From IMG/VR virus record IMGVR_UViG_2541047922_000008: a stretch of DNA of 18,265 nt, one strand, 5' to 3'. The position numbers and the translations under genes were made by a program. The notes under the pieces were generated by a model. The model had not been told where the DNA came from, made no database searches, and was given only the letters and a program-made list of their open reading frames with translations. This document shows, in pieces, positions 667 to 18,265 of this stretch (within the stretch, counting starts at the first letter, position 1; each line of letters starts with the position of its first letter). This DNA is from a virus (Duplodnaviria > Heunggongvirae > Uroviricota > Caudoviricetes).

Positions 667-691
667 AAAAACAAGGCCGCGAAAGCGGCCT
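667..691 (-). terminator. intrinsic terminator ending the giant-protein operon
   Basis: AGGCCGC-GAAA-GCGGCCT hairpin (674-691) with a GNRA loop, followed on the minus strand by TGTTTTT (667-673). Sits immediately 3' of the 104-aa gene stop at 700-702. Confidence 0.6.
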
Positions 692-699
692 GTGACATG

Positions 700-1014
700 T
701 CACGATAGTTCCGTTTTGTTGAATTCAATTATATCAAGGTCAGAACTTTCGTAATCCTTACCGAATAAAGCAAAACATATCGCGTCAAGTTCTCTCTTAT
801 GTTTGGACGCCCGATCATAATTACCACCCCAACAGCAAATGAATCCACCAAGTACTGCTGATTCAAAAAGTAATGATGCTGCATCAATATGTCTGAACCA
901 GGAGTCTATAAGTAAAGCAGAGAGTGATATTAATGTTCCCCACCCGCCAATCCTTCTCCATTTCTCAGCTTCATATTTAAGAGAAGCAATATATTCAATT
1001 TTATCTCTCGTCAT
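700..1014 (-). CDS. small membrane protein (104 aa, two predicted hydrophobic helices), last gene of the cargo operon
   Basis: ORF with ATG overlapping the upstream stop (TGATG at 1012-1016). Hydrophobic stretches WGTLISLSALLIDSWF and ASLLFESAVLGGFICCWGG. About 35% GC, versus about 50% for the neighbouring genes. Confidence 0.6.
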   Translation of the reverse strand: MTRDKIEYIASLKYEAEKWRRIGGWGTLISLSALLIDSWFRHIDAASLLFESAVLGGFICCWGGNYDRASKHKRELDAICFALFGKDYESSDLDIIEFNKTELS

Positions 1015-3770
1015 CAGTTCCCCACCGCCTTTCCAAAATCCGGTGCTCTACGTGGCGCAATAGCACCCGGTTCCCACCAACTCGTTATGTCGAACTCCCG
1101 TTGCGAGCGGTCCCTTACTCGATCATTGTAACCAGGGTTTGCCATCTCCTGAAGTTGTTGCAATATCAGGTGATTGGTTATCGCTTTCGCATACCACAGG
1201 TTTGCGAATGGGGTGATCATGCGGGCTGTTTTCAGTGCATCGGCACCGAATGATGTTTCTTCACCCTGTAGAGCCTTCTGTGGGTTAGTAATCAGTAATT
1301 TTGTTAACTGCTCTGCAAAGCTCAACACAGGGCCCCCCATAGTGGCACCGATGCTGGAGCCATATTGCGTATGGTCCTGGAAAATAAAATCACCGTAGAT
1401 ACCGAACGAACCACCTTTCAGTAAAGCCTGAACCCATGTGGTTGGTTTTGTCATATCCAGCGGATCATTACCATTTAACAAACTGTTCATCTGGATCGCA
1501 AACATACCAGCAAGAGTTGTTCCCCCGATATATGAGGCCAGAAATTTAATGGCCGGAACGGTGTCCAAATCCCGTGTTCTGTTAACAAGTTGCCGAAATC
1601 CAGCAAATGGGGTTGTTTTGAAGAGCATGAAGCTCTTCATTAACTCGCCAGCATCATCACGGGCATATGTATCAATACCCGTAGCGGTGGTCACAGCATT
1701 GGTCATCTCACCGTGCGTAATTCCCAGCAATTTCTGGGCTGCTTCAGCGCGTGCATTACGAATCATGCGCGTGATGGTCTGCTCAGCCTCAGCGTCGAAT
1801 GCTTCTTTCATCCGTTTCAGGCGTTCTGGAGGGAGATCTCCAAGGGCTGCCAGTGCCTTTTCACTCCCGGCACGAATCCGGGTAATACGGTCTGCCATAA
1901 TGTCGGCTATTACGTTATCGGGCACAGCGTAAATCGCGTCTGGCGTCATCCCCATATGCCCGGCAGTAGTCATCGGCCTGAGTTCTGCCGCTGCCATGAT
2001 GGCCCAGTCCTCATTGCTCCATCCCTTGTTAGCCAGAATGGTTTTATCGGTTCCTTTCATATCGTCCAGCGTCTTAAATTTTCTGGTCAGCTCGCCAATG
2101 TTTTTGTACATCAGGAGACCAAACGACGCTTTGTTTGCGCGGTCCATAGCGATCAGCCCGGACCACTTCAGTGTCTTCTCTGCGAACCAGCCAGTTATGC
2201 CGCGAGACAAGTCAAACCCGCCCATTTTCGAAACCACAGCAGCATGTGAATCCACCAGCAGACCGAGTTCAGCATTCGCCTTTTTGGCATCTCCACTAAA
2301 CAGGTTTTTGATAGTGTTAACGGAAAGCCGCATTCCACCACGGGTAAAGCCCAGCGCCTGCGCATTTGCCCGCATAATTGCCTGGTCGCTGGTTGCTGTC
2401 AGTACGCTGGTGCCAAGCATGGCGCTGGTCATCAGGTTACGCAGACCACCAACTGCTGAAGAGAACACACTCGATGAAGCGACACCATTTAGGCCAGCCA
2501 TTGAGTTGAACATACGGGCAACTAATTTGGCCTCATCCTCCATTTCTTTTTTGCGTTTCCCGCCTGTTACTGCGCGCTTATAGATGCGATCCAGTACCAG
2601 GGAAAAGTTTCTTTCGGCGTCCGGACCAAAGGCTTTAACGACGCCCAAATCCCTGGATGATGATTGCAGGTGCGACATCATCACCCCCACCAGCGGCTGC
2701 TGAGTGTATCGCTCCATATAGGCGAAGTGTGACTGCGCATCCTTGAACGCCATCACCCTGTGCTGAGAACCACGGCTCTTTATTCCTCCGGCTCCCATAA
2801 ATGTACCAGGCTCAATTTTGTTTGCCCCATCAGTGGCCTTCGTTTCAAAGATCGCTTCCAGTGCCTGACGGTACTCGACGTCATTCATAATGCTGCCGTC
2901 AGGATTAACGTAATTGCTGCGATCCTGCGTGTTGTAAGCGTCATCAACCCATTTCTGGCGGGCAAACTCAATCGGTGGCTGGCGACCTGAAAGACGTGCT
3001 GTAGCTTGCTCTGCCACTGGTAACGATGCCAGCCATTCTTCGCGCCCGGCATTGCGAATAAGGTCAGCATCATCCACATATGGCGTATGCCAGTCTTCTC
3101 GCAGGCCTATGTCAAAGCCATTGTCGTTCATCTCATGACGAACACGGCCTGTTACATCCTTCCAAATCTGTGCAATTTTCTTCGCCAGGGGATTCCCGGT
3201 ATCTTCGCCATATATTTCTTTCAGGATCTGGAGTTGTGCAGACTTTGCCGCCTGCCTGTCGAATACACTCCGAAACCGCTGCTCTCCAAGCGCCCTGCTC
3301 TGCTCGAAGAATTTGCGGACGTCATCACCTGCTTTTAGAAGTTCAGCACTGAGCTGACGGGACCAGTCCTGATATGCCCCAATTGCAAGCTCTTCAGCAG
3401 AAGTAACGGAGATATCAGCTTTGTCTCTCGATCGTCGGCCAGCAAAAATAAACTGCTGCAAATTAACAGGTGTCTGCTGATCAGGCGGGATGTTAGCATC
3501 GAGAGTGTCAGTAATTTTACTGATGGCGATCGCATTCTGGGCAACACGCTGTCTTTTCTTGTACACATCATGAACCACACGCTGGCGAACCAGTTCTGCA
3601 GCATCCATGTATGTTTGAGCATCAGGAATACCACTTTTGCCTTCCATTGCATTCTTTCTGTGCACTTGCCGCACAGCTTCTTTGATACGATCTTCGATAT
3701 TTTTCAGCTCATCAGCCTTTGGCTGGCGACCAAGTGTCTGCGCAATAGCTTCAACACATGCCTGTTTCAT
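1014..3770 (-). CDS. giant protein C (about 918 aa), unknown function, Gly/Ser/Ala-rich hydrophobic central region, no P-loop
   Basis: Long ORF. The ORF track starts at a GTG at 3791; I prefer the ATG at 3770, which overlaps the stop of protein B as TAATG (3768-3772), the same junction as between A and B. No Walker A motif seen. Confidence 0.85.
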   Translation of the reverse strand: MKQACVEAIAQTLGRQPKADELKNIEDRIKEAVRQVHRKNAMEGKSGIPDAQTYMDAAELVRQRVVHDVYKKRQRVAQNAIAISKITDTLDANIPPDQQTPVNLQQFIFAGRRSRDKADISVTSAEELAIGAYQDWSRQLSAELLKAGDDVRKFFEQSRALGEQRFRSVFDRQAAKSAQLQILKEIYGEDTGNPLAKKIAQIWKDVTGRVRHEMNDNGFDIGLREDWHTPYVDDADLIRNAGREEWLASLPVAEQATARLSGRQPPIEFARQKWVDDAYNTQDRSNYVNPDGSIMNDVEYRQALEAIFETKATDGANKIEPGTFMGAGGIKSRGSQHRVMAFKDAQSHFAYMERYTQQPLVGVMMSHLQSSSRDLGVVKAFGPDAERNFSLVLDRIYKRAVTGGKRKKEMEDEAKLVARMFNSMAGLNGVASSSVFSSAVGGLRNLMTSAMLGTSVLTATSDQAIMRANAQALGFTRGGMRLSVNTIKNLFSGDAKKANAELGLLVDSHAAVVSKMGGFDLSRGITGWFAEKTLKWSGLIAMDRANKASFGLLMYKNIGELTRKFKTLDDMKGTDKTILANKGWSNEDWAIMAAAELRPMTTAGHMGMTPDAIYAVPDNVIADIMADRITRIRAGSEKALAALGDLPPERLKRMKEAFDAEAEQTITRMIRNARAEAAQKLLGITHGEMTNAVTTATGIDTYARDDAGELMKSFMLFKTTPFAGFRQLVNRTRDLDTVPAIKFLASYIGGTTLAGMFAIQMNSLLNGNDPLDMTKPTTWVQALLKGGSFGIYGDFIFQDHTQYGSSIGATMGGPVLSFAEQLTKLLITNPQKALQGEETSFGADALKTARMITPFANLWYAKAITNHLILQQLQEMANPGYNDRVRDRSQREFDITSWWEPGAIAPRRAPDFGKAVGN

Positions 3771-5830
3771 TATGGGTTCCTCAAGAAGCACGCTGCCGCT
3801 ACAGAATAAACCTTCGATTCGTTCTGGACTGTCTTAATCTGTTCATCCAACTCAGCCAGGAGATCAGAAAGTTTTGTCGGGTTTCCGGTTTCCGGGTGAG
3901 CTATAGTCAGCTCAGGATTGGCAACAGCCATGTCCCTAGCAGCCATAAGGTCATAGCTGTTGGATGAGAGAACCTGCCCTGTATCTGGATCAACGCTGAC
4001 GTCCCCTCTGTGTTCACCAGCCGATGAGAAAGCACTTTCAGCACGAGGGACAGGCGATTCACTAATTGGCTCTGATGATGTTTCATATCTGACACCATTT
4101 TCTTCAAAAACCTTTTGTATTTCATGGTATTGCTCTTGGTAAGTATCAGATATATCTGATCGCAATGGACCATCAAGCCCTCGCGCCATCCCCCCAACAT
4201 TTACAGGCTGACCATCATTAAGTTGCCTGTATGCTTCATCCATGGCGTCAACATGGCTGTTGATGCTCTCATTGCTGGTGTGAAGCACTGGTGACGATTC
4301 AATATCGTAATGAAGCCCCTCATTCAAAATGTGGGCTGCATCAATATCGCTTGGTTTTATTCTTTCCCTCGCCCGGATACCAAAAACTTTTTCTACTGCG
4401 GCTTCCAGTTTCATATTGCGAAGACGCATACTTACGAGTAACCGTAACTGCTCAGGTGTAACGGTTCCAACCTGAATACCACTGTATCTGAATATATAGG
4501 CTTTAAAACCTGAAATAATTTTTTCCCATGATGAAACGCTTGTCTTTAGAGATGGATTTACTGCATGTGCGGCAACTTCTTCAGCGTACAACCACTCAGG
4601 ATATGTTTCAGGGTACTCACCCCTTTTCTTATATTCATAATATTGTGACATCCCATATGCAAATTCAGGATAGTCAGAATGCTTGTTTGCAGATTTAAGT
4701 ACAGCATTAGCTAGCTTTCTGGCCTTCCAGTCAGGGTAATGGCGCTGCTCAAGATGAAGCGCCTCGTGATGAAGGGTTTCTAACAGTTCTTCATGGTCTT
4801 TTAATCCATTAATATTTATTCTTATTATTGGTTCTTTTCCAGAAGCTACTGTCACATGACCTTTATTCAGAAGTATTTCTCCATCACTATTTTTTATTGC
4901 TGGTTCATTAATAAGTTCTATTACTCCTGAATCAGATAAATCACGAACCATTGACTCAATGTTACCATCAGGAGATTGCTGATAATGTTCACCAAAAGTT
5001 GATTTTATTTCTTCTGCAGAAATGTTCGACTCTGTACCATCATGGTTATTATGGGTAGTCAGGTGATGAACGCCACCAAAGACCCCGCCTAAAACGGCAT
5101 CGACTAACATCGCCTGACCGTCAAATACCCGGTACTGTTTTGCCATCTCCGTGTAGCCTTTTTCCTCCAGTGTTGCGCCGACAGAGTAACGGTTCAGTCC
5201 ACCGAATCCGGTGTTGATTGCCACACCTGAGGCAATGCGCGTTGCCAGTGTGGTGCCGACGGCAGCGGGTAAGGCCATACCCACAGCATTGAAAAGGCTT
5301 TGCTGCGTTGCCAGGTTACGCGCCGTAGCCTCGTCTACTCCCTTCCCTTTAAAATCCTGATAGGACTGCTCATACGTAGAACTGAAAGCTGTAGCAGCGC
5401 CGATGAGGGGACCGCCAAACATAGTTGTTCCGATTGCAGGAACAAATTTACCAAGCTCATTTAATACCTCAGCCGCCATTCCCTGACTGCCTGCATCAGG
5501 CTTCACATAGCTGCGGGCATCCTGTAACTGTTTTCCGATCGTGTCGTATGTATCATTCAGTGTTTTGTCAGCATCAGGGAACATCTCCCGAAAAATATTA
5601 ACAGTCGGTGCCACGTCTGCGGTAAATGCCGGATCGCTAATCAGGCGCTTGCTGAATCCGACGGCAGACTGCGCGAGACCGAGAGTCCCCTCCGCCACGC
5701 CGCTCAAAAGTGCAGTACCTGAACCCTGGAAGGGAGTCGGATCGTAGTCTTCTGGCCTTGCTGGGTTGGCAACTGTTTTGTCGTCAATCCATGCCTGACC
5801 TTCTGGAGCCAAAGAAAAAACATCAGACAT
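3770..5830 (-). CDS. giant protein B (686 aa), N-terminal glycine-rich hydrophobic segments plus a single HExxH zincin-type motif
   Basis: Long ORF whose ATG overlaps the stop of protein A (TAATG at 5828-5832). HHEALHLEQ at residues 354-362 (nt 4745-4771). GxxxG-rich hydrophobic stretches across residues about 120-260. No P-loop. Confidence 0.85.
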   Translation of the reverse strand: MSDVFSLAPEGQAWIDDKTVANPARPEDYDPTPFQGSGTALLSGVAEGTLGLAQSAVGFSKRLISDPAFTADVAPTVNIFREMFPDADKTLNDTYDTIGKQLQDARSYVKPDAGSQGMAAEVLNELGKFVPAIGTTMFGGPLIGAATAFSSTYEQSYQDFKGKGVDEATARNLATQQSLFNAVGMALPAAVGTTLATRIASGVAINTGFGGLNRYSVGATLEEKGYTEMAKQYRVFDGQAMLVDAVLGGVFGGVHHLTTHNNHDGTESNISAEEIKSTFGEHYQQSPDGNIESMVRDLSDSGVIELINEPAIKNSDGEILLNKGHVTVASGKEPIIRININGLKDHEELLETLHHEALHLEQRHYPDWKARKLANAVLKSANKHSDYPEFAYGMSQYYEYKKRGEYPETYPEWLYAEEVAAHAVNPSLKTSVSSWEKIISGFKAYIFRYSGIQVGTVTPEQLRLLVSMRLRNMKLEAAVEKVFGIRARERIKPSDIDAAHILNEGLHYDIESSPVLHTSNESINSHVDAMDEAYRQLNDGQPVNVGGMARGLDGPLRSDISDTYQEQYHEIQKVFEENGVRYETSSEPISESPVPRAESAFSSAGEHRGDVSVDPDTGQVLSSNSYDLMAARDMAVANPELTIAHPETGNPTKLSDLLAELDEQIKTVQNESKVYSVAAACFLRNP

Positions 5831-8361
5831 TATTCAACCCTCACGACAATAGCTTCATTGGTTCTGGGATCTGTTGCCCAGCGTCCGCTACCATTTACCA
5901 GCCGATACCGGTTATTGCCGATATTAACTGGTGTGAAGTTTGACACTGCATTTACGTTAAGTCCGGCTTCTTTCAGTGCTTGTTTCGCAGATGTGGTATA
6001 GCGATCTTTGAAAGTAGATTTATCCATGCCGAAAGGCATTACAACGTCGCCGCCATTAAAATCCTTGTATATACCGCCAGTAGCATACTTCACGGCATCA
6101 GCAACAGTGTCTGTATCAGGCATACTGGTTCTTACCGTAGATGCATCACCTGATTGATAAGCTATTCCTGCGTAAGCGGCTTTGAAAAGGCTATAACTGA
6201 TCTGACGTAACTGCGGGTTACGGGCAAATGCGTTACCTACCTGTTTGTCGAAAGCGTCTTTCATCTTATCTTCGCTCGGCAACTGTACCGGAGTTATGCC
6301 CGCATTCTTCATGGCCTTCGTCGGATTCAGTAGTTGGTCACCGGAAAGAATAACCTTTGCAACGTCGTACTTGTTCATCGTCGGCTTATACCCGATGAAC
6401 TGACTATATGGGATCGACGGTCTGGTGTTATCGTACTGATTATCCGGCGTGCCCAGCAGCAGCGCAGAATAGGCTGTTGCCGCACTGTTCGGAGCAATTA
6501 CAGATGCCACCTGCCGTATTGCTGGCGCAGGCAGCTTCTCCCCCATGCTCTGCAACAGTTTAATTGTCTGGTCAACGTTCTGAGTGCCGCGCACCTGCTG
6601 TGCCAGCGCAGCCGCCTCTTCACTGTTGAGGATTGGGGCATTAATTCCCAACGCGCGTAAGCTTTCCTGCGACGAGAAACGGTTAGCCACCTCGGCAGTG
6701 ATGTCGTCAGGGTTGTTGCTGGTGATCGGCTTATAGGCTCCGATTTCCACCGCTGCACTAAACGGATTATTCTGCCTCTGGGTTATTACCTTCGTGGCTG
6801 CCGCCGATACCCGGTCGAATAACTCCGCACGAGACGCATACCCCTCCCCTGTCTCACCAGTATCCGGGCGTAATTGCTCAACATATGCGGTAATGCTGCT
6901 TGTCGGCATGTTGCGGAAAGAGCCTATATACTGTCCGGCGATCTGCAAATTTCTGAACTCGGTATATCGCAGGTTTCCTTCTCTGACACCATAAGCAGCA
7001 ATGAACTCACCCTCACCAGGCGGGTTAGGAAATTCAACGCCACGCATATACGCAGCCGTTGCATCGCGAACCCGGCTTTCGAGCATCGTTCTATATTCAG
7101 CCTGCTGCTGTCTGGCTAATGCATCCGTCTGTCGCAACACGCTGGCCTGATCTGATTCACTTAAAGCATCGAACCAAGCTACACCGGTATAACGTTTATT
7201 TTTTGTCGGTAGCTGAGAAAGCCCCAGTGCGGCACTAACGCCAGCGGCCAATTGCTGATCACTGTACGGCTGACTGCCTTGCTCATGATGAATAATTGCT
7301 TTGCACAGAGATTTCAGTGTGTCAGGATTTGATGCGTCAAGCGGCTGGTCAGGAGTTACACCGAGCTGAGCACATACTGCCCGTATATAAGCATCAGTTT
7401 TATTATCATCACTGGCCGGTGCCCAGCGATTAATTATTTCGCTGATGGTGTCATAACCCTGACGCTGATACGACAGCAAATTGCGACCAAGCGCGCGAAT
7501 ACCGTGTTCAGGGGTTTCGAATTTGGCAAAGCGACCATCATCACCAGTCTGCCCAACCCACGGATTAGTTTTGCTGTATTCAAGATTGCCGGGGTTATTG
7601 TTGCGTATACCGCGGGTACGATCGGAAGAGCCACTATCTGCTACAGCACGGCGAGATCCAGCAGCAGTATCGCTTAACTCGCCGTTTTGCTGTCTTACCT
7701 GAAGATAGTTTGCTCCAATAGCATTTTGAGCAGTTGCTTTTGCTGTTGCTTCTTTAAACTCGATTTTCTTGGCCTGGATTTGCTCGTCGCTCCAGCCATG
7801 CGCAATACCGTAATCCTCAATTTGCTGGAAAGTTTGCGTATTAGCCAATATGTATGCTGCGTTGTCGCCATATAATGCTGAGGCATTTTTACCATTATTC
7901 AGCAGTGTCGCCTGAAACTGGCCTTCTTCGTAGGCATTTATTTGCCCTATCTCGTACCTCCCGGCCTGCGTAGCGAACTGAATACGCTGCTGCTGCGCCT
8001 GCTGCATGAAAGCATTACGAGCCTGTTCATCCGGCAGCGACATAGCCAGTTGTTCGATCTGAGCATCAAACTGCTGTGTATACTCATGGCCTTTTCCAAT
8101 AGCATTTTTCCCTTTCAGGTTAAGCAATCCTGTTTCAGGATTATTCAGCAGATCACTGCCTGTCTGACTGAGTTTAAGGGATGCCTCCTGAACCAAGGCA
8201 ATATTGGCGCGCTGTTTTGCCTGACCAAGAACATCAATTGCCTCTGTCCCTGCCCGAACAAAAGCATCACCAATACCTGGCTGAGAAAACGTCTGCAAGC
8301 CTGCTGACTGAACTCCACGGCTCTCAACCTGGCGTCCGGATACTGTTGGTACGACTGGCAT
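5830..8361 (-). CDS. giant protein A (843 aa), Q/A/N-rich, unknown function
   Basis: Long ORF with ATG at 8361 preceded by an AGGGGG Shine-Dalgarno. Sharply defined block TRGIRNNNPGNLEYSKTNPWVGQTGDDGRFAKFETPEHGIRALGRNLLSYQ at residues 248-299. No P-loop. Confidence 0.85.
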   Translation of the reverse strand: MPVVPTVSGRQVESRGVQSAGLQTFSQPGIGDAFVRAGTEAIDVLGQAKQRANIALVQEASLKLSQTGSDLLNNPETGLLNLKGKNAIGKGHEYTQQFDAQIEQLAMSLPDEQARNAFMQQAQQQRIQFATQAGRYEIGQINAYEEGQFQATLLNNGKNASALYGDNAAYILANTQTFQQIEDYGIAHGWSDEQIQAKKIEFKEATAKATAQNAIGANYLQVRQQNGELSDTAAGSRRAVADSGSSDRTRGIRNNNPGNLEYSKTNPWVGQTGDDGRFAKFETPEHGIRALGRNLLSYQRQGYDTISEIINRWAPASDDNKTDAYIRAVCAQLGVTPDQPLDASNPDTLKSLCKAIIHHEQGSQPYSDQQLAAGVSAALGLSQLPTKNKRYTGVAWFDALSESDQASVLRQTDALARQQQAEYRTMLESRVRDATAAYMRGVEFPNPPGEGEFIAAYGVREGNLRYTEFRNLQIAGQYIGSFRNMPTSSITAYVEQLRPDTGETGEGYASRAELFDRVSAAATKVITQRQNNPFSAAVEIGAYKPITSNNPDDITAEVANRFSSQESLRALGINAPILNSEEAAALAQQVRGTQNVDQTIKLLQSMGEKLPAPAIRQVASVIAPNSAATAYSALLLGTPDNQYDNTRPSIPYSQFIGYKPTMNKYDVAKVILSGDQLLNPTKAMKNAGITPVQLPSEDKMKDAFDKQVGNAFARNPQLRQISYSLFKAAYAGIAYQSGDASTVRTSMPDTDTVADAVKYATGGIYKDFNGGDVVMPFGMDKSTFKDRYTTSAKQALKEAGLNVNAVSNFTPVNIGNNRYRLVNGSGRWATDPRTNEAIVVRVE

Positions 8362-8457
8362 CAGTAACCCCCTGTTTTGAATCGTGTACCAGAATTCATA
8401 AAACCTGATTTAAATAACATTGGCGTCCCTCCGCTTTGATGCTGTACCAGCGATTCA

Positions 8458-8664
8458 TTACTCACCCCCCGATGCAAAACCATTCTGATTAAGCCAGGCG
8501 TTTACGGCATGTCTGACAATCTGCGCCACGCCTGGTAATGGCTGATCAGGGTGATTGTTCACATGGTCGATTCTGTACTGCTTAAGGCGCATCACGGTCT
8601 GTGCATCCAGATGAACGGAACCACCTCTGACATCGCCTGTGTTCAGGTCGTTAATACAATTCAC
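8458..8664 (-). CDS. small protein (68 aa), likely first gene of the giant-protein operon
   Basis: GTG start at 8664 directly after an in-frame TAA, preceded by AAGAGGAA. Lies downstream of an AT-rich putative promoter region (8665-8763) and 96 nt upstream of protein A. Confidence 0.45.
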   Translation of the reverse strand: MNCINDLNTGDVRGGSVHLDAQTVMRLKQYRIDHVNNHPDQPLPGVAQIVRHAVNAWLNQNGFASGGE

Positions 8665-8766
8665 AGTAATTTCCTCTTACTGACTAAACTATGCACATTA
8701 TTGATCGAAAAAAGTGGTAGATAAATATATTTCTATCATAAAAACAGATTGATTGAGTTCAGATCC

Positions 8767-8789
8767 AAAAAAAGCCGGATTGCTCCGGC
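8767..8789 (-). terminator. intrinsic terminator separating the replication module from the cargo operon
   Basis: GCCGGA-GCAA-TCCGGC hairpin (8774-8789) followed on the minus strand by seven T (8767-8773). Not followed by a T-run on the plus strand. Confidence 0.6.
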
Positions 8790-9961: not shown

Positions 9962-10387
9962 TTAAAACGGTATCCCGTCCCCGTACGGATCATCGTGCTG
10001 GCCTGTCTGTTGCTTTGCCCTGTTCAGTGCATCAGTAGCCTGCCCCTGCTGGCCTTTTTTGCCGCCCGGTCGCGCCGTTCGCGCACTGATTACGCTGTCT
10101 GCGATAACCTGCCATCCCTGCCTCGTTTCGCCGTTCTGGCCCGTCCACCGGCTCACCTGCATGTTACCGGCCACGCTTACCAGTTCGCCTTTGTGGTGTT
10201 TTGCCAGTGCGTCAGCCTGTCTGCCAAACGCCAGGACGGATAACCACATCGTCGCCGTTCCGTCATCTGCCTGATTGCATGGAAGGGGGACCGCCATACT
10301 CGCCATCGCCATTTGTGTGCCCTTGCTGGTGGTCTTTAACTGCGGGTCAGCCACCAGCCGCCCGTAAGCTGATATTTGCGCCGTCAT
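9962..10387 (-). CDS. ssb: single-stranded DNA-binding protein (SSB-like OB fold with acidic C-terminal tip)
   Basis: Residue pattern (GRLVADPQL ... TMWLSVLAFGRQADALA ... GELVSVAGNMQVSRWTGQNG) parallels E. coli SSB. C-terminal DDPYGDGIPF resembles the SSB DDDIPF tail. GGAGAA Shine-Dalgarno upstream. Confidence 0.8.
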   Translation of the reverse strand: MTAQISAYGRLVADPQLKTTSKGTQMAMASMAVPLPCNQADDGTATMWLSVLAFGRQADALAKHHKGELVSVAGNMQVSRWTGQNGETRQGWQVIADSVISARTARPGGKKGQQGQATDALNRAKQQTGQHDDPYGDGIPF

Positions 10388-10446: not shown

Positions 10447-10574
10447 TTTTGCGGGTTACAATCGCACATTTGCGGGTTATAACTGCCGTTTTGCGGGTTA
10501 CGTGCGGGTTATTGATTTCCTTTTTAATCATGCAGTTAATTAACTTATACACAGGATAACCCGCATAACCCGCA
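10447..10574. repeat. iteron cluster, putative origin of replication
   Basis: Four direct copies of TTTGCGGGTTA at 10447, 10468, 10488 and 10502 (spacing about 21, 21, 11 bp). Two inverted copies TAACCCGCA at 10557-10565 and 10566-10574. An AT-rich spacer lies between them. Located between the primase stop and the ssb start. Confidence 0.6.
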
Positions 10575-12724: not shown

Positions 12725-13023
12725 TTCTTGCCCCTGAATGCGTTAATCATGTTCTTTATTACCTGAATATTTGCCTGTGCTTTCTCTTTACTGGTGGGCT
12801 TACTGCGTGGTACTGCACATACCAGTGAAAAATCACGCCGGAACTGATGAACGGGCATCACACAGTCATAGTCGTACCCTGCGCGGCGGTATGTAATGTG
12901 CCGTTCATACACGGAATTAATAACCACGCTGTCGCCATATTTATCCCGGAAAATATCCCCGATCCTGATTTTCGGGCGAGTCTGTCCGCTGGCATTTAAG
13001 CCAGTAAATTTAATCTTCTTCAT
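12721..13023 (-). CDS. hypothetical protein (100 aa)
   Basis: ORF translationally coupled to the primase gene (4-nt overlap). No motif recognised. Confidence 0.55.
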   Translation of the reverse strand: MKKIKFTGLNASGQTRPKIRIGDIFRDKYGDSVVINSVYERHITYRRAGYDYDCVMPVHQFRRDFSLVCAVPRSKPTSKEKAQANIQVIKNMINAFRGKK

Positions 13024-13025
13024 GT

Positions 13026-13283
13026 TTATTTCCCGGTATGGGGTTCTTCTTTATATTTATGGGCTAACAAATCTGGTAATTGCCTGTATTTATCCTCGGC
13101 AATATATTCAGAATAATCGACAGCACTGTTCAGTATATCTAACGCCGTTTCATGCTCCAGATTCGAAACTATAAGGAACGTTGCTACTTTTAGCATATTC
13201 GCGATATGCAAAAGAGCATCAATTTCATTTTTTGGCGCTTCACTGAATTTTTGCTCCAGAAGAATAAATCGTTCATCACGCAT
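13026..13283 (-). CDS. hypothetical protein (85 aa), AT-rich
   Basis: ORF 2 nt upstream of the 100-aa gene. Markedly AT-rich relative to neighbours. Confidence 0.5.
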   Translation of the reverse strand: MRDERFILLEQKFSEAPKNEIDALLHIANMLKVATFLIVSNLEHETALDILNSAVDYSEYIAEDKYRQLPDLLAHKYKEEPHTGK

Positions 13284-13479
13284 AGTATTCCCCCTGACGG
13301 ATGCGGGCAGTAAATACCATCACGCAGCCAGTCGGGGATTGCTGACGGGCTTCCTGTTCGCTGGCGGCCTCGATGTGTATTACGCGTGGTTGTGCGGTGC
13401 TCAGGGCGATAAAACGCCAGATGTATTTATTCAGGTTGTGCGAGTCCCGCCCTTGCGGGTGTGTGGTATGATTTAACAT
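13276..13479 (-). CDS. hypothetical small protein (67 aa), first gene of the leftward replication operon
   Basis: ATG at 13479 preceded by GAGGTAG. It is the 3' part of the 396-aa track ORF, whose upstream part runs through the operator palindromes and antisense to two better-supported plus-strand genes. Confidence 0.35.
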   Translation of the reverse strand: MLNHTTHPQGRDSHNLNKYIWRFIALSTAQPRVIHIEAASEQEARQQSPTGCVMVFTARIRQGEYYA

Positions 13480-13576
13480 AGCTACCTCGATACGCTTTCT
13501 ATCGTTGGTGGTTAGACGCCCTGCATGTGTTGCGAGCACTGCGGGGCGTTGCTTAATTTGAGCAATGCAACCCAAA

Positions 13577-13616
13577 CTGTGCGCACAGATTAAAATCATG
13601 TGTGCGCACATGTCAA
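13577..13616 (-). promoter_or_regulatory. leftward promoter with palindromic operators
   Basis: Perfect -35 TTGACA on the minus strand (13611-13616). It overlaps the perfect 16-bp palindrome CATGTGTGCGCACATG (13597-13612). A perfect 12-bp palindrome CTGTGCGCACAG (13577-13588) lies at the expected transcription start. A half-site TTGTGTGCGCC sits near 13645-13657. The -10 hexamer is weak (TTAATC). Confidence 0.5.
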
Positions 13617-13684
13617 TACTTAACTTCTCACTTTTTTTGCTGTATTGTGTGCGCCCATCAAATCCATTTAAGTGAGGTGTACCA

Positions 13685-13882
13685 ATGTCTAGCGGAAACA
13701 CAAACAACAAATCAGCAAAGAAAAATATTCGATTCCCGCACGAGCTTATAGATGGGATTGATGCCAGTGTTGAACAAGAAAAATTAACTAATCCTAGTGC
13801 TAATTTTTCCGCATGGGTCTTAGATGCCTGTGGACGCAAATTAAAATATGAACAGCGCCGGAAGGCCAAAGAGCAGGAGTAA
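13685..13882 (+). CDS. small ribbon-helix-helix-like DNA-binding protein (65 aa), candidate repressor
   Basis: GAGGTG Shine-Dalgarno 6 nt upstream. NIRFPHELIDGIDASVEQE fits the Arc/MetJ beta-strand plus helix pattern (R-F-P-x-E-L). Transcribed divergently from the operator-bearing promoter. Confidence 0.55.
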   Translation: MSSGNTNNKSAKKNIRFPHELIDGIDASVEQEKLTNPSANFSAWVLDACGRKLKYEQRRKAKEQE

Positions 13883-13939
13883 CCATCACCAGCGCCGTGG
13901 TGCGGTGAACTGTGGCGCACAGGGTTACAGGTATCTACG

Positions 13940-14137
13940 ATGACTGACAAATCATTAAAGAAATTATCCTCATCCAGGAAAAAACAACGCAAAAATGCGG
14001 TAAGCGAACAAGAACAGGAAAGATTTGCGCCATGTGCGTTTGTCCTTGAGAAGTTCTTAAAAGAGTACAGGCGCACAAAAATGGAATCGCATACCTGGAA
14101 AACATCGCAGTATGGCGATGCTAAAGAGCAGGAATAG
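13940..14137 (+). CDS. small basic protein (65 aa), hypothetical
   Basis: ORF with a weak Shine-Dalgarno. Its last codons and the about 15 nt after the stop repeat the 3' end of the upstream small gene. Confidence 0.4.
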   Translation: MTDKSLKKLSSSRKKQRKNAVSEQEQERFAPCAFVLEKFLKEYRRTKMESHTWKTSQYGDAKEQE

Positions 14138-14227
14138 CCCACCAGCAAGCCAGCACACTGATCACATTGCCCACCAGCCGCAAATCTGGCATTGTTGGCG
14201 ATGCGTTTGATTTCCTTTGTTCCCACT

Positions 14228-14255
14228 GGCGACCTATCCCGGTCGCCTTTGTTTT
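14228..14255 (+). terminator. intrinsic terminator for the plus-strand small-gene transcript
   Basis: GGCGACC-TATCCC-GGTCGCC hairpin (14228-14247) followed by TTTGTTTT. No T-run on the minus strand. Confidence 0.5.
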
Positions 14256-14305
14256 GCCTGTTATCCAGCAACGGGGCGCTTTTTCTTTCTGTAACGTTCG
14301 GATCG

Positions 14306-14863
14306 TTACACATTGCTTTCACCCTCCAGAAAATCAGGCTGATATTTACGCCATAGCGCCCGCTCTTCTCGTTCCAGTGCATCTTTTGCCTCTTTGCATT
14401 GCTGTAACCTGTAACCGCGTTTGCTGGCTTCCTGTTGATATGCAGCCTGACGTTTACTGAAATCATTCAGCATGGCAAACGGAACACCATAACCCCCCGT
14501 TTTGCGGATTGAAGGAATCACCTCGCGGAATACCCAGTTACTGAAACGGTGCGCAAATGTGCCTGGTGTGGAAGCTTTACGGCTGCGGGCGATCAGTTTG
14601 TAGAAACCTGATTCAGAGACAACATTCCAGCTTCTGGCACCACCACGCTTACCGGAATGACCCTCGGTTAAAGCTAGGGTCATTACCTCATCGTTATCCA
14701 GAACTGAAACGGCATCAGTAACATTGCTGATTTCCAGCGCGGCACACACATCAGCGCCAACAAACCACGGCTCGCCGTTGATACTCACTATGCGCACCTG
14801 AATGTCATCGAATTTAATGACAGAGATTTCAGTGCGACCAGCATAAAAGACAGGTTTACGCAT
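14306..14863 (-). CDS. Bro-N domain protein (phage antirepressor family)
   Basis: VIKFDDIQVRIVSINGEPWFVGADVCAALEI matches the Bro-N signature. 8-nt overlap with the upstream gene. Confidence 0.8.
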   Translation of the reverse strand: MRKPVFYAGRTEISVIKFDDIQVRIVSINGEPWFVGADVCAALEISNVTDAVSVLDNDEVMTLALTEGHSGKRGGARSWNVVSESGFYKLIARSRKASTPGTFAHRFSNWVFREVIPSIRKTGGYGVPFAMLNDFSKRQAAYQQEASKRGYRLQQCKEAKDALEREERALWRKYQPDFLEGESNV

Positions 14864-15656
14864 GGCTGCTCACCTCCATGCGGCGGGCTAACCAGCGTTG
14901 CGAAAGGCGAATTAATTCAGCTTTCCGCTGGTGGTAGTCCAGGCCTAACTCAATCAGCGTGATATTGCTCTGCTCAAGGTAAGAAAGGTGCTCAAGCTGC
15001 AACACGCTCATGTGGTCGCGTGGTTCACCTGTGATGCCGTTCGCCTGCGCCCACTGTTTTGCAGTCATGCCACCCAGCACGATACGCGCCAGCATATTAG
15101 CTTCCGTAGTGTAGTGGTGCTGGAGCGTGTTTTTACCCAGTTCAGCCCGGTACGCCTCCAGCGCGGCACACATTGGCTTAAAGTAGCTGGCTACGGTGAT
15201 ACGGGCTTTCAGTTCCCGGCGTAACGCTGCGGAACGTACAGGCGCTACCTTGTGTAGCTCCTCCTCGCATTTGATGAAGTACTGACGAACGGCGCGGCCC
15301 TGTTCGGTGCGTTCGATCATTGCCAGTTCTTTCGCCATATTCAGGGTGAGTAAGTAATCATGAGCAAGCTGCTGGCGAGATTTTGCGCTCGCCGAATTGG
15401 GTGAGGTCAAATATTTGACGACTTCAAAATCTACTCCCTTTTTAAATCCATACTCCTCAATGCGCCCTTTAATCCAATTGGTGAAATCACGGCCTACCCC
15501 GAGCGCATTATGCAACGTTCTAGCGCTAACAATATTGGTTTCACGCCCGCCAATAACGCCGGAAATAACCGGGATAATTTCGCCAAAATTTTGCAGATTC
15601 TGGTTTTCAGGCCGAACGAAGCCCTGCCCCTGTACGGGCGTTTTTCGCAGTTTCAT
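14856..15656 (-). CDS. AntA/AntB-type phage antirepressor
   Basis: IVSARTLHNALGVGRDFTNWIKGRIEEYGFKKGVDFEV and HDYLLTLNMAKELAMIERTEQGRAVRQYFIKCEEEL match the AntA/AntB antirepressor domain. AGGTG Shine-Dalgarno. Confidence 0.8.
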   Translation of the reverse strand: MKLRKTPVQGQGFVRPENQNLQNFGEIIPVISGVIGGRETNIVSARTLHNALGVGRDFTNWIKGRIEEYGFKKGVDFEVVKYLTSPNSASAKSRQQLAHDYLLTLNMAKELAMIERTEQGRAVRQYFIKCEEELHKVAPVRSAALRRELKARITVASYFKPMCAALEAYRAELGKNTLQHHYTTEANMLARIVLGGMTAKQWAQANGITGEPRDHMSVLQLEHLSYLEQSNITLIELGLDYHQRKAELIRLSQRWLARRMEVSSHA

Positions 15657-15731: not shown

Positions 15732-15929
15732 TCAGGCAGCCGTTCCGCGTGATTCGGCAATACGCTGATTGATCCATTCGTCAATTTCACTTTCAACGAA
15801 AGCAATCGCTCGCGAGCCAATTTTAACTGATGCAGGAAATTTACCTTGCCCCATAAGGCGATAAATCCATGCCTTGCTATATCCAGTTCTACGCTGAACT
15901 TCTGTTAAACGAATAAGCGTATTTGACAT
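15732..15929 (-). CDS. alpA: AlpA/Vis-family HTH regulator (excisionase-like)
   Basis: LIRLTEVQRRTGYSKAWIYRLMGQGKFPASVKIGSRAIAFVESEIDEWI is the classic AlpA (Phage_AlpA) pattern. GAGGT Shine-Dalgarno. Confidence 0.85.
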   Translation of the reverse strand: MSNTLIRLTEVQRRTGYSKAWIYRLMGQGKFPASVKIGSRAIAFVESEIDEWINQRIAESRGTAA

Positions 15930-16124: not shown

Positions 16125-16928
16125 TTAATCCGGCTTTGCGTTCTTTTGGCTGTTGTCTCGGTTAATAGGGCAGGCAGTCCTCTCTATGAGCGTTGCAAGA
16201 GCATTACTTGCCCCCCACTGCTTAAGCTCCCTGGTTATCGCTTCTTGATTTCCCCTGGTGGCAAAATCATTTTCTGGATCGTAATTGGCCCACTCTCTGT
16301 TTCTAATCTCAATAGCCTTAGCTAATGGGTCTTTATCCCAGTATTTATATAAGTGTATCGGGCGCTCTTGCTCTAACTGCTCTATCCTTGCCCTTAACTC
16401 TGCGTTTTCTCTTTCCAGCATTGCGATTTGGGATAATAAATCATCCTCTGTACGCAACTCTTTCTTTTCAATATCGCGTCCTTGTGCCTCGTCATTTTCA
16501 GAAGAGTTAGCGCCTTCCAGCTTCGTTAACGCGTCAAGGACATCGGGAAAAATTGCGAAAATTTCACCCCTTATAAATCCAATGTTCTCAAATTCGGGAT
16601 CTTCCCAATAACCGGACACCAGAAAACCATTTTCATCCCTCTCACCAGGTAAACAACCATGTTTCCGAACCGCATCCAGATTTCTATAAAGAACATCATA
16701 ATCAAATTCATCCCGATACGGGTTACAAAAAGATTCCAACAGCTTAAATTCATTTACTGTGTACAGGCGGATATGTTCTCCGCTTATTCTCCTGAGTATC
16801 CAAGTTATGAGATCTGAAACATCATAATCATCACCAGCGACCTTAAGCACGACCTCAAGAAATTCACGTAAAGAAATAAAATCTTTTTTGTATTCGTTTA
16901 ATTCGGCATGAATATCAATCATACGCAC
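16125..16928 (-). CDS. acidic protein (267 aa) with central coiled coil, unknown function
   Basis: ORF with GAGGTG Shine-Dalgarno. About 56 Asp+Glu versus about 36 Lys+Arg. Heptad-like segment LLSQIAMLERENAELRARIEQLEQER. Sits between int and alpA. Confidence 0.6.
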   Translation of the reverse strand: MRMIDIHAELNEYKKDFISLREFLEVVLKVAGDDYDVSDLITWILRRISGEHIRLYTVNEFKLLESFCNPYRDEFDYDVLYRNLDAVRKHGCLPGERDENGFLVSGYWEDPEFENIGFIRGEIFAIFPDVLDALTKLEGANSSENDEAQGRDIEKKELRTEDDLLSQIAMLERENAELRARIEQLEQERPIHLYKYWDKDPLAKAIEIRNREWANYDPENDFATRGNQEAITRELKQWGASNALATLIERTACPINRDNSQKNAKPD

Positions 16929-17050
16929 ACCTCAGCGTCCTCTACTGTAGTGGCTGTGCCAGCCCGTCGAGGTATACGGTTTTTCGGGAGCGACCCTAGA
17001 CACAGCCTTTTCTTTCGTCGCTCAAAGTCTACTACTGTATACTCAACCAG

Positions 17051-18265
17051 TCATCCACATTTTCCGAACTTGCCATGCACCACGTTGCCGCCCTGTTCCA
17101 GTGAGTCCATATAGTCGGCGTACCACTGGAGCATCTCGCGCCGCCCGTCCAGATATTGCGCATGATTGTACGTGCCACGAATTGAGTTCTTATCAACGTG
17201 TGCAAGCTGCGTTTCTATCCACGCGGTGTTATAGCCCTGCTCATGTAAAATCGTGCTCATCGTGTGCCGGAACCCATGACCAGTAACGCGCCCAGAATAG
17301 CCAATACGACGAATAAGCACGTTCATCGCCATTTCACTCATCGGCTTACTGTGCTGGATTCGACCAGGGAAAATAAACTGATACTGCCCCGTCATGTGTT
17401 TTAACTGTTCCAGAATAGCGATCGCCTGTTCTGAAAGCGGCACACAATGAGGACGGCGCATCTTCATTCGTTCTTTAGGCACTTCCCACAAACGATTATC
17501 AAAATCGATCTCCTGCCATTCTGCCTGTCGTAATTCCCCTGGCCGGAGCCCTGTCAGAATCAATAATCGCATACCCAGCTTGACGATCTGGCTTCCGGTG
17601 TACGTATTAAGAACGCGGAAAAATTCCGGCAGTTCGTCGGCCTTCAAATAGGCATAATGCTCTTTTTTGTGTGGAGCAAATGCGCTTGCCAGATCTGGTG
17701 CGGGGTTATATTCAGCGCGTCCGGTGATGATTGCGTACCGGAACACCTCGCCGCATCGCTGGCGAACCTTACGCAATTTTTCGGTCGCCCCACGGTCATT
17801 AAGACGGGAGAGAACCGCAAGCAACTCCATTGGCTTAATTTCTGCGATCGGCCTGCCGCCAATGTACGGAAAAACGTCTTTTTCAAACGTCTCGATCATT
17901 TCCTCGGCGTATGACGATGACCACCTGTCGATCCGCTTTTCATACCATTCGCGAGCGATACCCTCAAAAGTATTGCCAAATTTGCTCGCCTGTTCTCGCT
18001 TTTGAGCTTTTCTGGCCTCACTTGGATTTATACCACCAGCAAGAAGCCTTTTAGCCTCATCCCTTGCCGCTCTGGCATCAGACAGAGACACATCAGGGTA
18101 CACGCCCAACGACAACATTTTGGGCTTTCCTGCAAATCTGTAACGTAGTCGCCACCCTTTCGAGCCGTTCGGCTCAATGAGTAACGAAAGCCCGTTACCG
18201 TCATTGAGTGTATAAGCCTTTTCTTTCGGCTTCGCGCGCCTGATAGCAAGGTCTGAAAGCAGCAT
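17051..18265 (-). CDS. int: tyrosine recombinase, P4-type integrase
   Basis: N-terminal arm-binding pattern LSDLAIRRAKPKEKAYTLNDGNGLSLLIEPNGSKGWRLRYRF. Catalytic-domain residues GLRPGELRQ, HGFRHT and the tyrosine in RGTYNHAQY. The ATG is the last three bases of the window. Confidence 0.9.
   Translation of the reverse strand: MLLSDLAIRRAKPKEKAYTLNDGNGLSLLIEPNGSKGWRLRYRFAGKPKMLSLGVYPDVSLSDARAARDEAKRLLAGGINPSEARKAQKREQASKFGNTFEGIAREWYEKRIDRWSSSYAEEMIETFEKDVFPYIGGRPIAEIKPMELLAVLSRLNDRGATEKLRKVRQRCGEVFRYAIITGRAEYNPAPDLASAFAPHKKEHYAYLKADELPEFFRVLNTYTGSQIVKLGMRLLILTGLRPGELRQAEWQEIDFDNRLWEVPKERMKMRRPHCVPLSEQAIAILEQLKHMTGQYQFIFPGRIQHSKPMSEMAMNVLIRRIGYSGRVTGHGFRHTMSTILHEQGYNTAWIETQLAHVDKNSIRGTYNHAQYLDGRREMLQWYADYMDSLEQGGNVVHGKFGKCG

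Follow-up and report, generated by a model that had tools for sequence, protein, structure and literature searches.

The viral record IMGVR_UViG_2541047922_000008 of IMG/VR, a stretch of 18,265 nucleotides that is referred to in its full length as the window, carries genes for integration, regulation and replication along with an operon of three giant open reading frames (ORFs). All substantial ORFs of the window lie on the minus strand. A preliminary description, made from the letters of the sequence, had portrayed the element as a hybrid with a P4-type integrase, a P4-type primase and iterons but with no packaging or capsid genes, and had offered two explanations: an unrecognized mobilization strategy, or a replicative island whose main payload is the giant operon. 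The large share of the element that it gave to the operon is borne out (~7.7 kb, or 40%). The comparisons presented here point to the window lying within a phage-inducible chromosomal island (PICI) of the EcCIMP1 type, 19.3 kb long and located in the 3′ end of the tRNA-Gly gene glyU, and to the operon being a cassette of DNA-ejection genes like those of the podovirus epsilon15. We place moderate confidence in this explanation as a whole.

The head of the operon (8458–8792, minus strand) comprises the terminator of the upstream unit (8771–8792), a promoter region, and a leader gene, p68, of 68 amino acids (aa; 8458–8664). No sigma-70 consensus promoter was found ahead of the operon. The p68 product looks like a ribbon-helix-helix protein, a reading made by eye from the sequence pattern and confirmed by no tool. 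The first giant gene (5830–8361, minus strand) encodes an 843-aa homolog of epsilon15 gp15, with 79% aa identity and a match to PHROG 992 (“head protein”) at 1e-289. Its residues 249–403 constitute a peptidoglycan-hydrolase domain (PDB 7q47, an endolysin, at 1.7e-16; 9vvp, Gp29, at 4e-39), through which the protein also matches PHROGs labelled endolysin or tape-measure. The second (3770–5830, minus strand) encodes a 686-aa homolog of gp16 with 67% aa identity overall (PHROG 1145, 6e-137), the two ends being ~90% identical to epsilon15 gp16 and the middle, residues 259–490, being replaced by an orphan segment. The third (1014–3770, minus strand) encodes a homolog of gp17 of 918–925 aa with 89% aa identity, assigned to PHROG 684 (“virion structural protein”) with E values down to 1.6e-295. 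The PHROG matches of all three cover nearly their full length, while Pfam and NCBIfam searches of the giant proteins gave nothing useful even at E values up to 10. Since the three giant ORFs match the virion PHROGs 992, 1145 and 684, the earlier statement that every recognizable capsid-related gene is lacking does not hold.

The order of the genes is that of the epsilon15 map, where gp17 is preceded by gp16 and gp15. Nucleotide homology to epsilon15 (blastn) extends from window position 8361, the ATG of the gp15 homolog, to position 1012, the stop codon of the gp17 homolog, at 75–79% identity and with a single gap at 4361–5061. Compared with epsilon15, dN/dS is 0.06 for the gp15 homolog, 0.14 for the gp16 homolog and 0.04 for the gp17 homolog, at dS values of 1.5–2.4 and without stop codons. 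Compared with the nearest phages, the corresponding ranges are 0.04–0.17 and 1.4–2.4, and the three ORFs, 7.3 kb in total, are again free of stop codons. The cassette has thus been under purifying selection.

The operon continues with a gene for a 104-aa predicted membrane protein (700–1014, minus strand) in the slot of gp18. An 82%-identical homolog stands directly after gp17 in a Uetakevirus prophage of Candidatus Erwinia dacicola, and homologs occur in 12 IMG/VR phage loci; other small membrane proteins occupy the same slot in epsilon15, in a phage-context contig (P0003/L008) and in an island of strain M21170. By these homologies, the 104-aa protein is taken to be of phage origin too. The cassette ends at 674–703 (minus strand) with the palindrome TGTGACATGTCACA at 692–703, followed by a strong terminator at 691–674. 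Strong terminators at 8771–8792 and 674–691 therefore bracket the operon. All four cassette genes, i.e., the gp15, gp16 and gp17 homologs and the gene of the 104-aa protein, are annotated “hypothetical protein” in RefSeq.

In complete phages, gp15–gp17 are located between tail-tube/T7-gp14-family core genes and the tailspike gene. This context was seen at 12 of 13 loci in species-representative genomes and at 59 of 71 IMG/VR loci, mostly in 39–42-kb Uetakevirus contigs. The 5′ part of the gp15 homolog is shared at 84–92% nucleotide identity with several hundred Escherichia coli Uetakevirus prophages. Distant relatives of gp17 found by tblastn are annotated as internal virion proteins, including a “putative internal virion protein” of Pelagibacter phages and proteins of VP2-like vibriophages. 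From their position, the hydrolase domain and these distant relatives, the three giant proteins are predicted to be internal core/ejection proteins of a podovirus. In T7-like and VP2-like podoviruses, their homologs belong to the internal core, are the first to be ejected, and form a conduit across the cell envelope, as demonstrated for a VP2-like phage (bioRxiv 10.64898/2026.06.25.734500). Since the operon is a copy of DNA-injection genes, it is probably part of how the island travels rather than unrelated cargo.

The middle of the gp16 homolog (window 4361–5061) is an orphan segment of ~230 aa with an HEALHLEQRH (HExxH) motif. The gp16 family exists in forms of 521, ~630 and ~690 aa that differ only in this middle part, and the same type of insert occurs in the phage-context contig P0003/L008. 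A larger homolog (832 aa) from a Pectobacterium island aligns across part of the insert. A word-indexed protein search found no homologs of the insert, and an exhaustive search of 1.84 billion representatives returned only a 74-aa fragment of the same protein. Searches of phages (tblastn) gave only matches at E = 2e-3 to Ralstonia phage proteins, some of them labelled “DarB-like antirestriction”, and a sequence search of PDB gave nothing significant. An AlphaFold2 model of the insert, built with 27 sequences, had a mean pLDDT of 43.6.

The palindrome that marks the 3′ end of the gp15–gp18 module, (T)GTGACATGTCAC(A), is perfect. Of 66 related loci, 58 have it within 700 nt downstream of the gp17 homolog, and it is otherwise nearly absent, with 64 matches in 1.2 Mb. 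Copies are found at positions 2142, 19517 and 39612 in epsilon15 (L002), at 37501 in L003, at 15355 in the M21170 island (L004), and at 8610 in the phage-context contig L008. In epsilon15, the palindrome also occurs just after terL and 107 bp before terS. A third lineage of islands, described below, has it 44 nt upstream of the gp15 homolog instead. The palindrome might serve for protein binding or as a packaging signal, or it might mark a point of module exchange. The cassettes of two E. coli island variants are near-identical save for two 300-nt patches in the gp15 homolog (window 7162–7461 and 5962–6261), which are ~20% divergent, with 60–66 mismatches each. These patches look like recombination tracts with other alleles.

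The borders of the element were located by comparison with complete genomes. By megablast, the window is 99.9% identical to the chromosome of E. coli 82.0311, where it is found between yqeG and tRNA-Gly (glyU)/actS (locus L001). At least 80% of the window is held by 27 of 5,426 complete E. coli genomes, and some part of it by 2,567. Window position 1 corresponds to L001 position 8001; the window has two extra G residues in a G-run near position 115 and an 11-nt deletion near position 542, and beyond position 545 window position x equals L001 x + 8009. No tRNA gene was found in the window itself. The island comprises L001 7158–26438 and runs past both ends of the window. The 3′ end of the tRNA-Gly gene, TGGAGCGGGCGAAGGGAA, is located at L001 26439–26456, and a second copy, TGGAGCGGCGAAGGGAA, at 7158–7174. 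These flanking direct repeats, TGGAGCGG(G)CGAAGGGAA, are 17 or 18 nt long and represent the attachment sites expected of a PICI. A 20-nt arm-type repeat, CTATAC(A/G)CATT(T/A)CTATACAC, is present inside both island ends. A synthetic empty site, in which L001 6600–7157 was joined to 26439–27000, was matched in one piece (1119 of 1120 nt) by 1,205 E. coli genomes, which establishes the element as a precise 19,281-bp insertion in glyU.

It follows that position 667, where the preliminary description had the island begin, is not a border; it corresponds to the terminator that ends the giant operon, and the true left end is at L001 7158. The attL site and a second iteron cluster are located 190–840 bp to the left of window position 1, and attR is located 165 bp to the right of the window end. 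Positions 1–673, for which no strand is assigned, represent the distal arm of the island. They consist of conserved non-coding DNA (1–443) and then a small ORF with a signal-peptide-like start (window ~519–680, plus strand), which encodes 53 aa in L001 (8516–8677) and is frameshifted in the window by the 11-nt deletion. The distal arm is 97% identical in the M21170 island, despite its different integrase and insertion site.

The cassette is not confined to this island. In strain M21170 (L004), the same replication module and cassette (97% nucleotide identity) are accompanied by an unrelated 423-aa integrase and inserted between dinD and yicC. In Pectobacterium zantedeschiae (L018), a diverged cassette (gp15 homolog 49% and gp17 homolog 73% identical) adjoins a DUF927 replication gene without capsid genes. 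A gene of the QueC family and one with a nucleoside 2-deoxyribosyltransferase domain lie between the replication gene and the cassette there (4772–7367), and might act in DNA modification or defense. A third lineage, from IMG/VR (L065, L067, L075), likewise has a DUF927 gene and a cassette without capsid genes, with gp15 and gp17 homologs that are 74% and 87% identical. The cassette therefore occurs on at least three island backbones, from Escherichia, Pectobacterium and metagenomes. Such recurrence indicates that it is an integral part of a mobile island and not a local relic.

The position of the cassette within the island is also informative. The p68 gene and its upstream sequence (window 8428–8780) are 90% identical at the nucleotide level to positions 14001–14352 of another E. 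coli PICI (L005), in which the p68 homolog (91% identical) stands directly upstream of a gene for a ClpP-protease/major-capsid fusion. Given this shared leader, the cassette occupies the slot of the PICI morphogenesis operon. The idea that the operon is an unrelated payload fails on this account as well as on its homology to gp15, gp16 and gp17 of epsilon15: it is a virion module in the morphogenesis slot of a PICI.

Excised forms of related islands exist. The attP junction of the present island was predicted from attL and attR as GTTTGTT-TGGAGCGGGCGAAGGGAA-CAATACAAC and searched for exactly. It was absent from IMG/VR and was found once among JGI metagenome contigs, in Ga0209547_100127 (L024; 372–4967 and 14395–14428), where the int-side arm is joined via the att core to the distal arm. 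The integrase, AlpA and AntA proteins of this contig are 97.5%, 100% and 89% identical to those of the island. Another phage-derived block occupies its distal slot and matches PHROGs 6216, 11810, 14324 and 7694; among its products are a 680-aa protein whose transglycosylase domain resembles that of the gp15 homolog and one of 175 aa with a TerS/Cox-like N-terminus. This block may be a third kind of cassette. A member of the third lineage, IMGVR_UViG_3300014936_000057 (19,241 nt; L096 and L067), carries alpA, primase, SSB, the cassette, an att core with arm repeats, and int. The two ends of the contig overlap, the final 45 nt matching the initial 47 nt at 95.6% identity, and attP is inside the contig, which suggests a free circular or concatemeric 19.2-kb form. 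The attP contigs represent relatives and not this exact island.

Upstream of the cassette is a replication module. The gene at 10598–12724 (minus strand) encodes a 708-aa primase/helicase-like replication protein with a DUF927 domain (Pfam, 2.5e-46) and a match to PHROG 1139 (“DNA primase”, 1.5e-174). Over its C-terminal 560 aa, the protein shares 62% identity with the TOPRIM and DUF927 protein of EcCIMP1. Because it belongs to the DUF927/PHROG 1139 group and shows no BLAST similarity to P4 alpha (best E of 0.96, tblastn), the description of the gene as a P4-type primase has to be abandoned. The iterons reported at the same time are present. Between the stop codon of the primase gene and the start of the gene for the single-stranded DNA-binding protein (SSB), a putative origin at 10450–10574 consists of four direct copies of TGCGGGTTA (10450–10511), an AT-rich spacer, and two inverted copies, TAACCCGCA (10557–10574). 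In L001 as a whole, 24 iteron matches were counted at no more than one mismatch, against 8 expected. The second cluster, at L001 7658–7811 (190–343 bp to the left of window position 1), has two copies of TGCGGGTTA, an AT-rich spacer, and three copies of TAACCCGCA at 21-bp spacing. Its geometry is the same as that of the origin beside the replication gene, and it is conserved in two islands with other integrases (L004 and L006).

Further along are genes on the minus strand for SSB (9962–10387; Pfam SSB, 2e-16), a ProQ/FinO-family protein (9428–9925; Pfam ProQ, 7e-24), and a 138-aa protein (9031–9447), as well as a frameshifted PerC-family pseudogene (~8797–9022) recognized by RefSeq and by Pfam PerC. 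The region of the 138-aa gene and the pseudogene gave only partial PHROG matches (PHROG 63 and 1711). The PerC-like protein of EcCIMP1 has been reported to repress LEE expression in Citrobacter rodentium.

The opposite end of the window is devoted to integration and regulation. A 404-aa tyrosine integrase of the P4/CP4-57 family (17051–18265, minus strand), whose ATG is at the last base of the window, contains the Pfam domains Arm-DNA-bind_3, Phage_int_M and Phage_integrase. It shares 38.7% identity with P4 Int across 406 aa (E = 1e-89, tblastn) and 66% with the EcCIMP1 integrase, so that in this case the P4-type label was apt. Between it and the next gene is an int-alpA RNA motif (16939–17006, minus strand; Rfam RF02996), detected by cmscan with 46.9 bits against a gathering threshold of 35.8 (E = 4e-7). 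An accessory slot between int and alpA holds the gene for a 267-aa coiled-coil protein (16125–16928, minus strand) that had no significant match in family searches and is conserved at 98.5% in the related island on L024. The AlpA-family regulator/excisionase that follows (65 aa; 15732–15929, minus strand; Pfam Phage_AlpA, 2e-19) is 78% identical to EcCIMP1 AlpA and 37% identical to ORF88/Vis of P4 (E = 1e-10), and is presumed to be the master activator of the island.

Further genes on the minus strand encode an AntA/AntB antirepressor-like protein (14856–15656; Pfam AntA, 8e-25), which is 60% identical to its EcCIMP1 homolog, a BRO-N protein (14306–14863; Pfam Bro-N, 5e-18), an Icd-like protein (13276–13611; NCBIfam phage_ICD_like, 1.5e-18), an 85-aa protein (13026–13283) between the Icd-like and DUF4222 genes, and a DUF4222 protein (12721–13023; Pfam DUF4222). 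The order Icd-like, 85-aa, DUF4222 recurs in other E. coli PICIs. Two small divergent genes on the plus strand, annotated in RefSeq, encode YlcI/YnfO (DUF3950; 13685–13882) and a 65-aa product (13940–14137) and match PHROG 949 and 21027. A mechanically listed ORF of 396 aa at 13276–14466 (minus strand) appears spurious; RefSeq has the Icd-like gene and the two small opposite-strand genes there. No C4/CI-type immunity RNA was found near icd. The order of the island in RefSeq is integrase, hypothetical, HTH regulator, AntA/AntB, BRO-N, Icd-like, hypothetical, and DUF4222, continuing with the DUF927 protein, SSB, ProQ/FinO, hypothetical, the PerC pseudogene, hypothetical, three large hypotheticals, and a small one.

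Several classes of satellite were considered in the light of this gene content. The P4-like core in SatelliteFinder consists of int, psu, delta, sid, alpA, epsilon and alpha, and the PICI core of an integrase, AlpA or another regulator, a primase-replicase, a capsid-morphogenesis gene and a small terminase, with no tail, holin or portal genes (PMC10085698). With respect to P4, the island has the integrase and an AlpA/Vis regulator and lacks the psu-delta-sid operon, alpha and epsilon. In tblastn searches of the whole island, the best E values were 2.0 for sid, 3.9 for delta, 0.69 for psu, 0.42 for epsilon and 0.96 for alpha, with cI above 0.4. Psu, Ogr_Delta, DUF1441/Rpp, small and large terminase, portal and capsid-shell families were absent from the main ORFs (Pfam, PHROGs, NCBIfam), and the same families were absent from 59 small six-frame ORFs outside the giant genes (Pfam).

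With respect to PICIs, the integrase gene, the AlpA gene and a gene for a primase/replicase with an adjacent origin occur in that order; tblastx comparison with epsilon15 and tblastn with marker proteins matched only the cassette and the integrase, in agreement with the absence of tail, holin, portal and lysis genes from PICIs. The island has no gene for capsid morphogenesis, small terminase or Rpp, which places it, like EcCIMP1, among “Type C” elements. The genes with which capsid-forming PICIs (cf-PICIs) make a major capsid protein of their own, and those for protease, portal, head-tail connectors and terminase, were likewise not detected. A defense-system role was also considered and dropped, as PADLOC-DB returned 0 families for nine giant and small proteins at E values up to 0.01.

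Much of the preliminary description survives this scrutiny. The absence of sid, psu and delta and of terminase and capsid-shell genes is upheld by all searches, including that of the small ORFs, where a gene like sid, psu, delta or Rpp could have been hidden, and the attachment sites that it proposed to locate have been identified at glyU. The element is a satellite-like integrative and replicative island, neither P4-type nor capsid-forming, and mobilization by Sid/Psu, by Rpp or in the manner of cf-PICIs does not apply to it. Of the P4 framing, the integrase and AlpA remain and everything else falls away. The choice between the two explanations offered is settled differently: the unrecognized strategy has a published precedent in EcCIMP1, and the payload operon is replaced by a virion module.

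EcCIMP1 is the closest known system. It is a 19,963-bp PICI in a tRNA-Thr gene of E. coli MP1 that excises only if the P22-like podovirus vB_EcoP_Kapi1 is present, and more so upon induction (Pick, Stadel and Raivio, ISME J 2025, PMC11773190). Kapi1 transduces it at low frequency in an int- and alpA-dependent manner, AlpA being needed for both excision and transfer, and it has no identifiable capsid or terminase genes, which makes it a “Type C” PICI in SatelliteFinder (PMC11773190). Downstream of its primase are genes for three hypothetical proteins with resemblance to “DNA transfer proteins” and to proteins of Kapi1; the authors proposed that this block acts in packaging or in the morphogenesis of the head, and did not read it as an ejection cassette (PMC11773190). 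In the MP1 genome, the block consists of genes for DUF2824, a 225-aa gp7-like protein, a “phage DNA ejection protein”, and a 906-aa transglycosylase protein, which match Kapi1_055–058 in order at 83, 58, 26 and 24% identity.

The two islands share a backbone (Int 66%, AlpA 78%, AntA 60% and replication protein 62% identical), a gene order (int, AlpA, AntA, DUF4222, Icd-like, DUF927, ejection block, distal arm), insertion in a tRNA gene, a PerC-family gene, and the lack of capsid, terminase and Rpp genes. They differ in that the EcCIMP1 cassette is of the P22 type and that of the present island of the epsilon15 type, the two not being homologous at E = 1e-3, and in that the helper of EcCIMP1 is a Lederbergvirus whereas a Uetakevirus is predicted here. 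In addition, EcCIMP1 is in tRNA-Thr rather than glyU, has two AlpA genes rather than one, and has a replication protein with a Zn-ribbon/TOPRIM N-terminus that is missing from its counterpart. EcCIMP1 has been tested experimentally, while the present island is known from its sequence. In both, a block of helper-like podovirus ejection genes is located downstream of the replication module. As judged from these comparisons, the same slot of two related backbones is filled by ejection cassettes that are unrelated to each other and resemble different podovirus genera. The sizes also agree. The ratio of island to helper genome is 0.486 here (19,281/39,672) and 0.506 for EcCIMP1 (19,963/39,436); taken together, cassette-bearing islands measure 19.2, 19.3, ~20.1 and 19.96 kb against known or presumed helpers of 39.4–39.7 kb, with ratios of 0.49–0.51.

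Other systems are more distant. Classical Gram-negative PICIs (EcCICFT073 type; Fillol-Salom et al. 2018, 2019), of which L005 and L006 are relatives, share the int-alpA-primase-ori layout, Icd-like (81–88%) and SSB (91–94%) proteins, p68 (91%, L005) and the distal iteron arm (L006). In contrast to the island, they have capsid-morphogenesis and/or DUF1441 and small-terminase genes in the slot, the latter pair being read here as Rpp/TerS packaging redirection; they exploit cos or pac siphoviruses and are smaller. P4 resembles the island in its integrase family (38.7%), its AlpA/Vis-like regulator (37%) and its insertion in a tRNA gene, and the two separated iteron clusters are reminiscent of P4 ori and crr. 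However, homologs of sid, psu, delta, epsilon, cI/CI RNA and alpha are absent from the island. The helper of P4 is a P2-like myovirus, whereas that of the island would be a podovirus, and no cos site is expected if this helper packages by headful. The cf-PICIs (Alqurainy et al., bioRxiv 10.1101/2022.09.08.507074) likewise combine a PICI backbone with true virion structural genes and borrow the rest from the helper, but they encode capsid, protease, portal, connectors and terminase and steal tails, while the island encodes only proteins located inside the head that leave with the DNA. Epsilon15 and E. coli Uetakevirus prophages (e.g., that of strain ECE218) share gp15–gp16–gp17 (67–89% identical), the small membrane-protein slot, the 3′ palindrome and the terminator, and differ by ~45 other phage genes (terminase, portal, capsid, gp11–gp14, tailspike, lysis, immunity) that the island lacks.

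The explanation that we favor, and hold to be reasonably likely, is that the island is a satellite of epsilon15-like temperate podoviruses (Uetakevirus) that supplies its own ejection proteins. Under this model, an epsilon15-like helper entering lytic growth would switch on alpA, whereupon the island would excise at the tRNA repeat and replicate from its iterons, and the p68-gp15-gp16-gp17-p104 operon would be expressed. The helper terminase, assumed to work by headful, would package island DNA into unmodified helper capsids at about two island copies per head (2 × 19.3 kb = 38.6 kb, compared with the 39.7-kb helper genome). Neither capsid remodeling nor terminase redirection by any known factor would be involved. 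The island core proteins would be loaded into the particles together with helper gp14 and would later form the channel across the cell envelope through which the island DNA is delivered, with the variable gp16 middle entering as an injected cargo domain. Possible benefits of bringing its own ejection proteins include a different injected cargo in the form of the replaced gp16 middle, escape from barriers aimed at the ejection proteins of the helper, and independence from the allele type of the helper, given that Uetakeviruses have two very different types of gp16 and gp17 that are only 27–30% identical to each other.

Several points weigh against this model. We infer the identity of the helper, induction, the packaging of dimers, and the incorporation and use of the island core proteins in virions. 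In most island-bearing genomes no second Uetakevirus-like locus was seen, the listed genomes having one place each (451 places in 424 genomes), and helpers residing alongside the island seem rare. The T7-gp14-family core protein, gp14, is absent from the island, and the cassette alone is therefore not a full ejection apparatus. No pac site and no TerS-like or Rpp-like specificity factor was found on the island; comparison of phage terS regions with it, in search of a helper pac site, gave only the 12–17-nt palindrome. The frameshifts in the PerC gene and the small ORF, and the one base by which attL differs from attR, indicate that this copy could be decaying. In the older, genetic model of Guichard et al. 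(2013), in the form in which it is cited in PMC12391199, epsilon15 gp15 and gp17 belong to a packaging/injection device with the portal and tailspike, which would make them central tail-tube rather than internal-core proteins; either way, they would be part of the DNA-delivery device. Finally, EcCIMP1, the sole relative put to experiment, transduces very poorly and leaves the helper titer unreduced (PMC11773190), such that the benefit of a cassette is unproven even there.

A rival explanation, unlikely in our estimation, is that the cassette is a weapon or a shield, which either poisons helper virions through mixed ejection complexes that do not function or, residing in the envelope, blocks DNA entry of epsilon15-like phages. 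Interference or superinfection exclusion of this kind would benefit both island and host. EcCIMP1 raises the superinfection immunity of Kapi1 lysogens (PMC11773190), altered copies or binders of helper structural proteins are common in satellites (SaPI, PLE, P4), the island proteins have diverged from the phage alleles (67–89% identity), and the gp15 homolog shows the patchy recombination between island variants described above (two 300-nt patches, ~20% divergent). Yet all three proteins are full length and under strong purifying selection, hydrolase domain included, which is beyond the need of a blocker, and poisoned cores would harm satellite and helper particles alike, because both draw on one protein pool. 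Moreover, the operon is located behind a PICI morphogenesis leader and not a constitutive promoter, the helper titer is not lowered by EcCIMP1, and PADLOC finds nothing.

It is considerably less probable that the cassette is inert baggage from recombination between a PICI and a Uetakevirus prophage, acting at most as a stuffer by which the island reaches half the length of a helper genome. The boundary palindrome common to island and phages might have served as a recombination site, the sizes of the islands group at 19.2–20.1 kb, and the pseudogene and frameshift elsewhere in this copy attest to some decay. Against this, 7.3 kb of coding sequence has remained open in three ORFs despite dS values of 1.4–2.4 and with dN/dS of 0.04–0.17, homology begins and ends exactly at gene boundaries, the cassette is found on at least three backbones across Escherichia, Pectobacterium and metagenomes, and an unrelated ejection cassette is present in the same slot of EcCIMP1. 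A P4-like or autonomous replicative island with a non-phage payload (toxin, defense or secretion), mobilized independently of the operon, is very improbable: although the P4-family integrase and AlpA, the lack of annotation of the giant proteins in Pfam, NCBIfam and RefSeq, and the HExxH motif of the gp16 homolog would suit it, the island lacks five of the seven core components of P4, among them alpha, the giant proteins are unambiguously homologous to virion proteins of a sequenced phage, PADLOC gives no matches, and the HExxH insert also occurs in normal phage context.

Known strategies of satellites include hijacking the size of the capsid (P4, SaPI, PLE) or the specificity of packaging (Rpp, TerS) and making heads of their own (cf-PICI). 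To our knowledge, there is no description of a satellite that brings along its own apparatus for DNA ejection, and a search of the literature for satellites with ejection or internal virion proteins produced nothing relevant. The EcCIMP1 type of PICI is known; an epsilon15-type ejection cassette on such an island is new. Beyond the satellite model favored for this island, it is conceivable, if somewhat doubtful, that a recurrent PICI strategy aimed at podoviruses exists, in which a helper-matched core/ejection set is carried without theft of capsid-size control or terminase specificity, on an element about half the length of the helper genome and packaged at two copies per headful. Particles that deliver the island would then inject its DNA with machinery encoded by the island, along with any cargo domain that this machinery contains. 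Such a strategy would have arisen at least twice with unrelated cassettes, i.e., the P22 type of EcCIMP1 and the epsilon15 type described here, with the transglycosylase-bearing module of L024 as a possible third. The idea of PICIs with helper-matched ejection cassettes at half the helper size was not found stated in the literature searched.

For this group of satellites, reading the operon as an ejection cassette makes a hitherto unexplained feature of EcCIMP1 open to testing and predicts a helper family for the present island. Prophage predictors are expected to call such islands defective prophages, as once happened with the EcCIMP1 region. If confirmed, the general idea, which now draws on comparative evidence and one experimentally studied relative, would hold real interest for those who study satellites. 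A simple sequence rule, namely a PICI backbone with a core-protein cassette and about half the length of a helper, could sort part of the “Type C” elements and, if the recurrent strategy is true, could explain part of the >6,000 “Type C” PICI-like elements that are currently unassigned.

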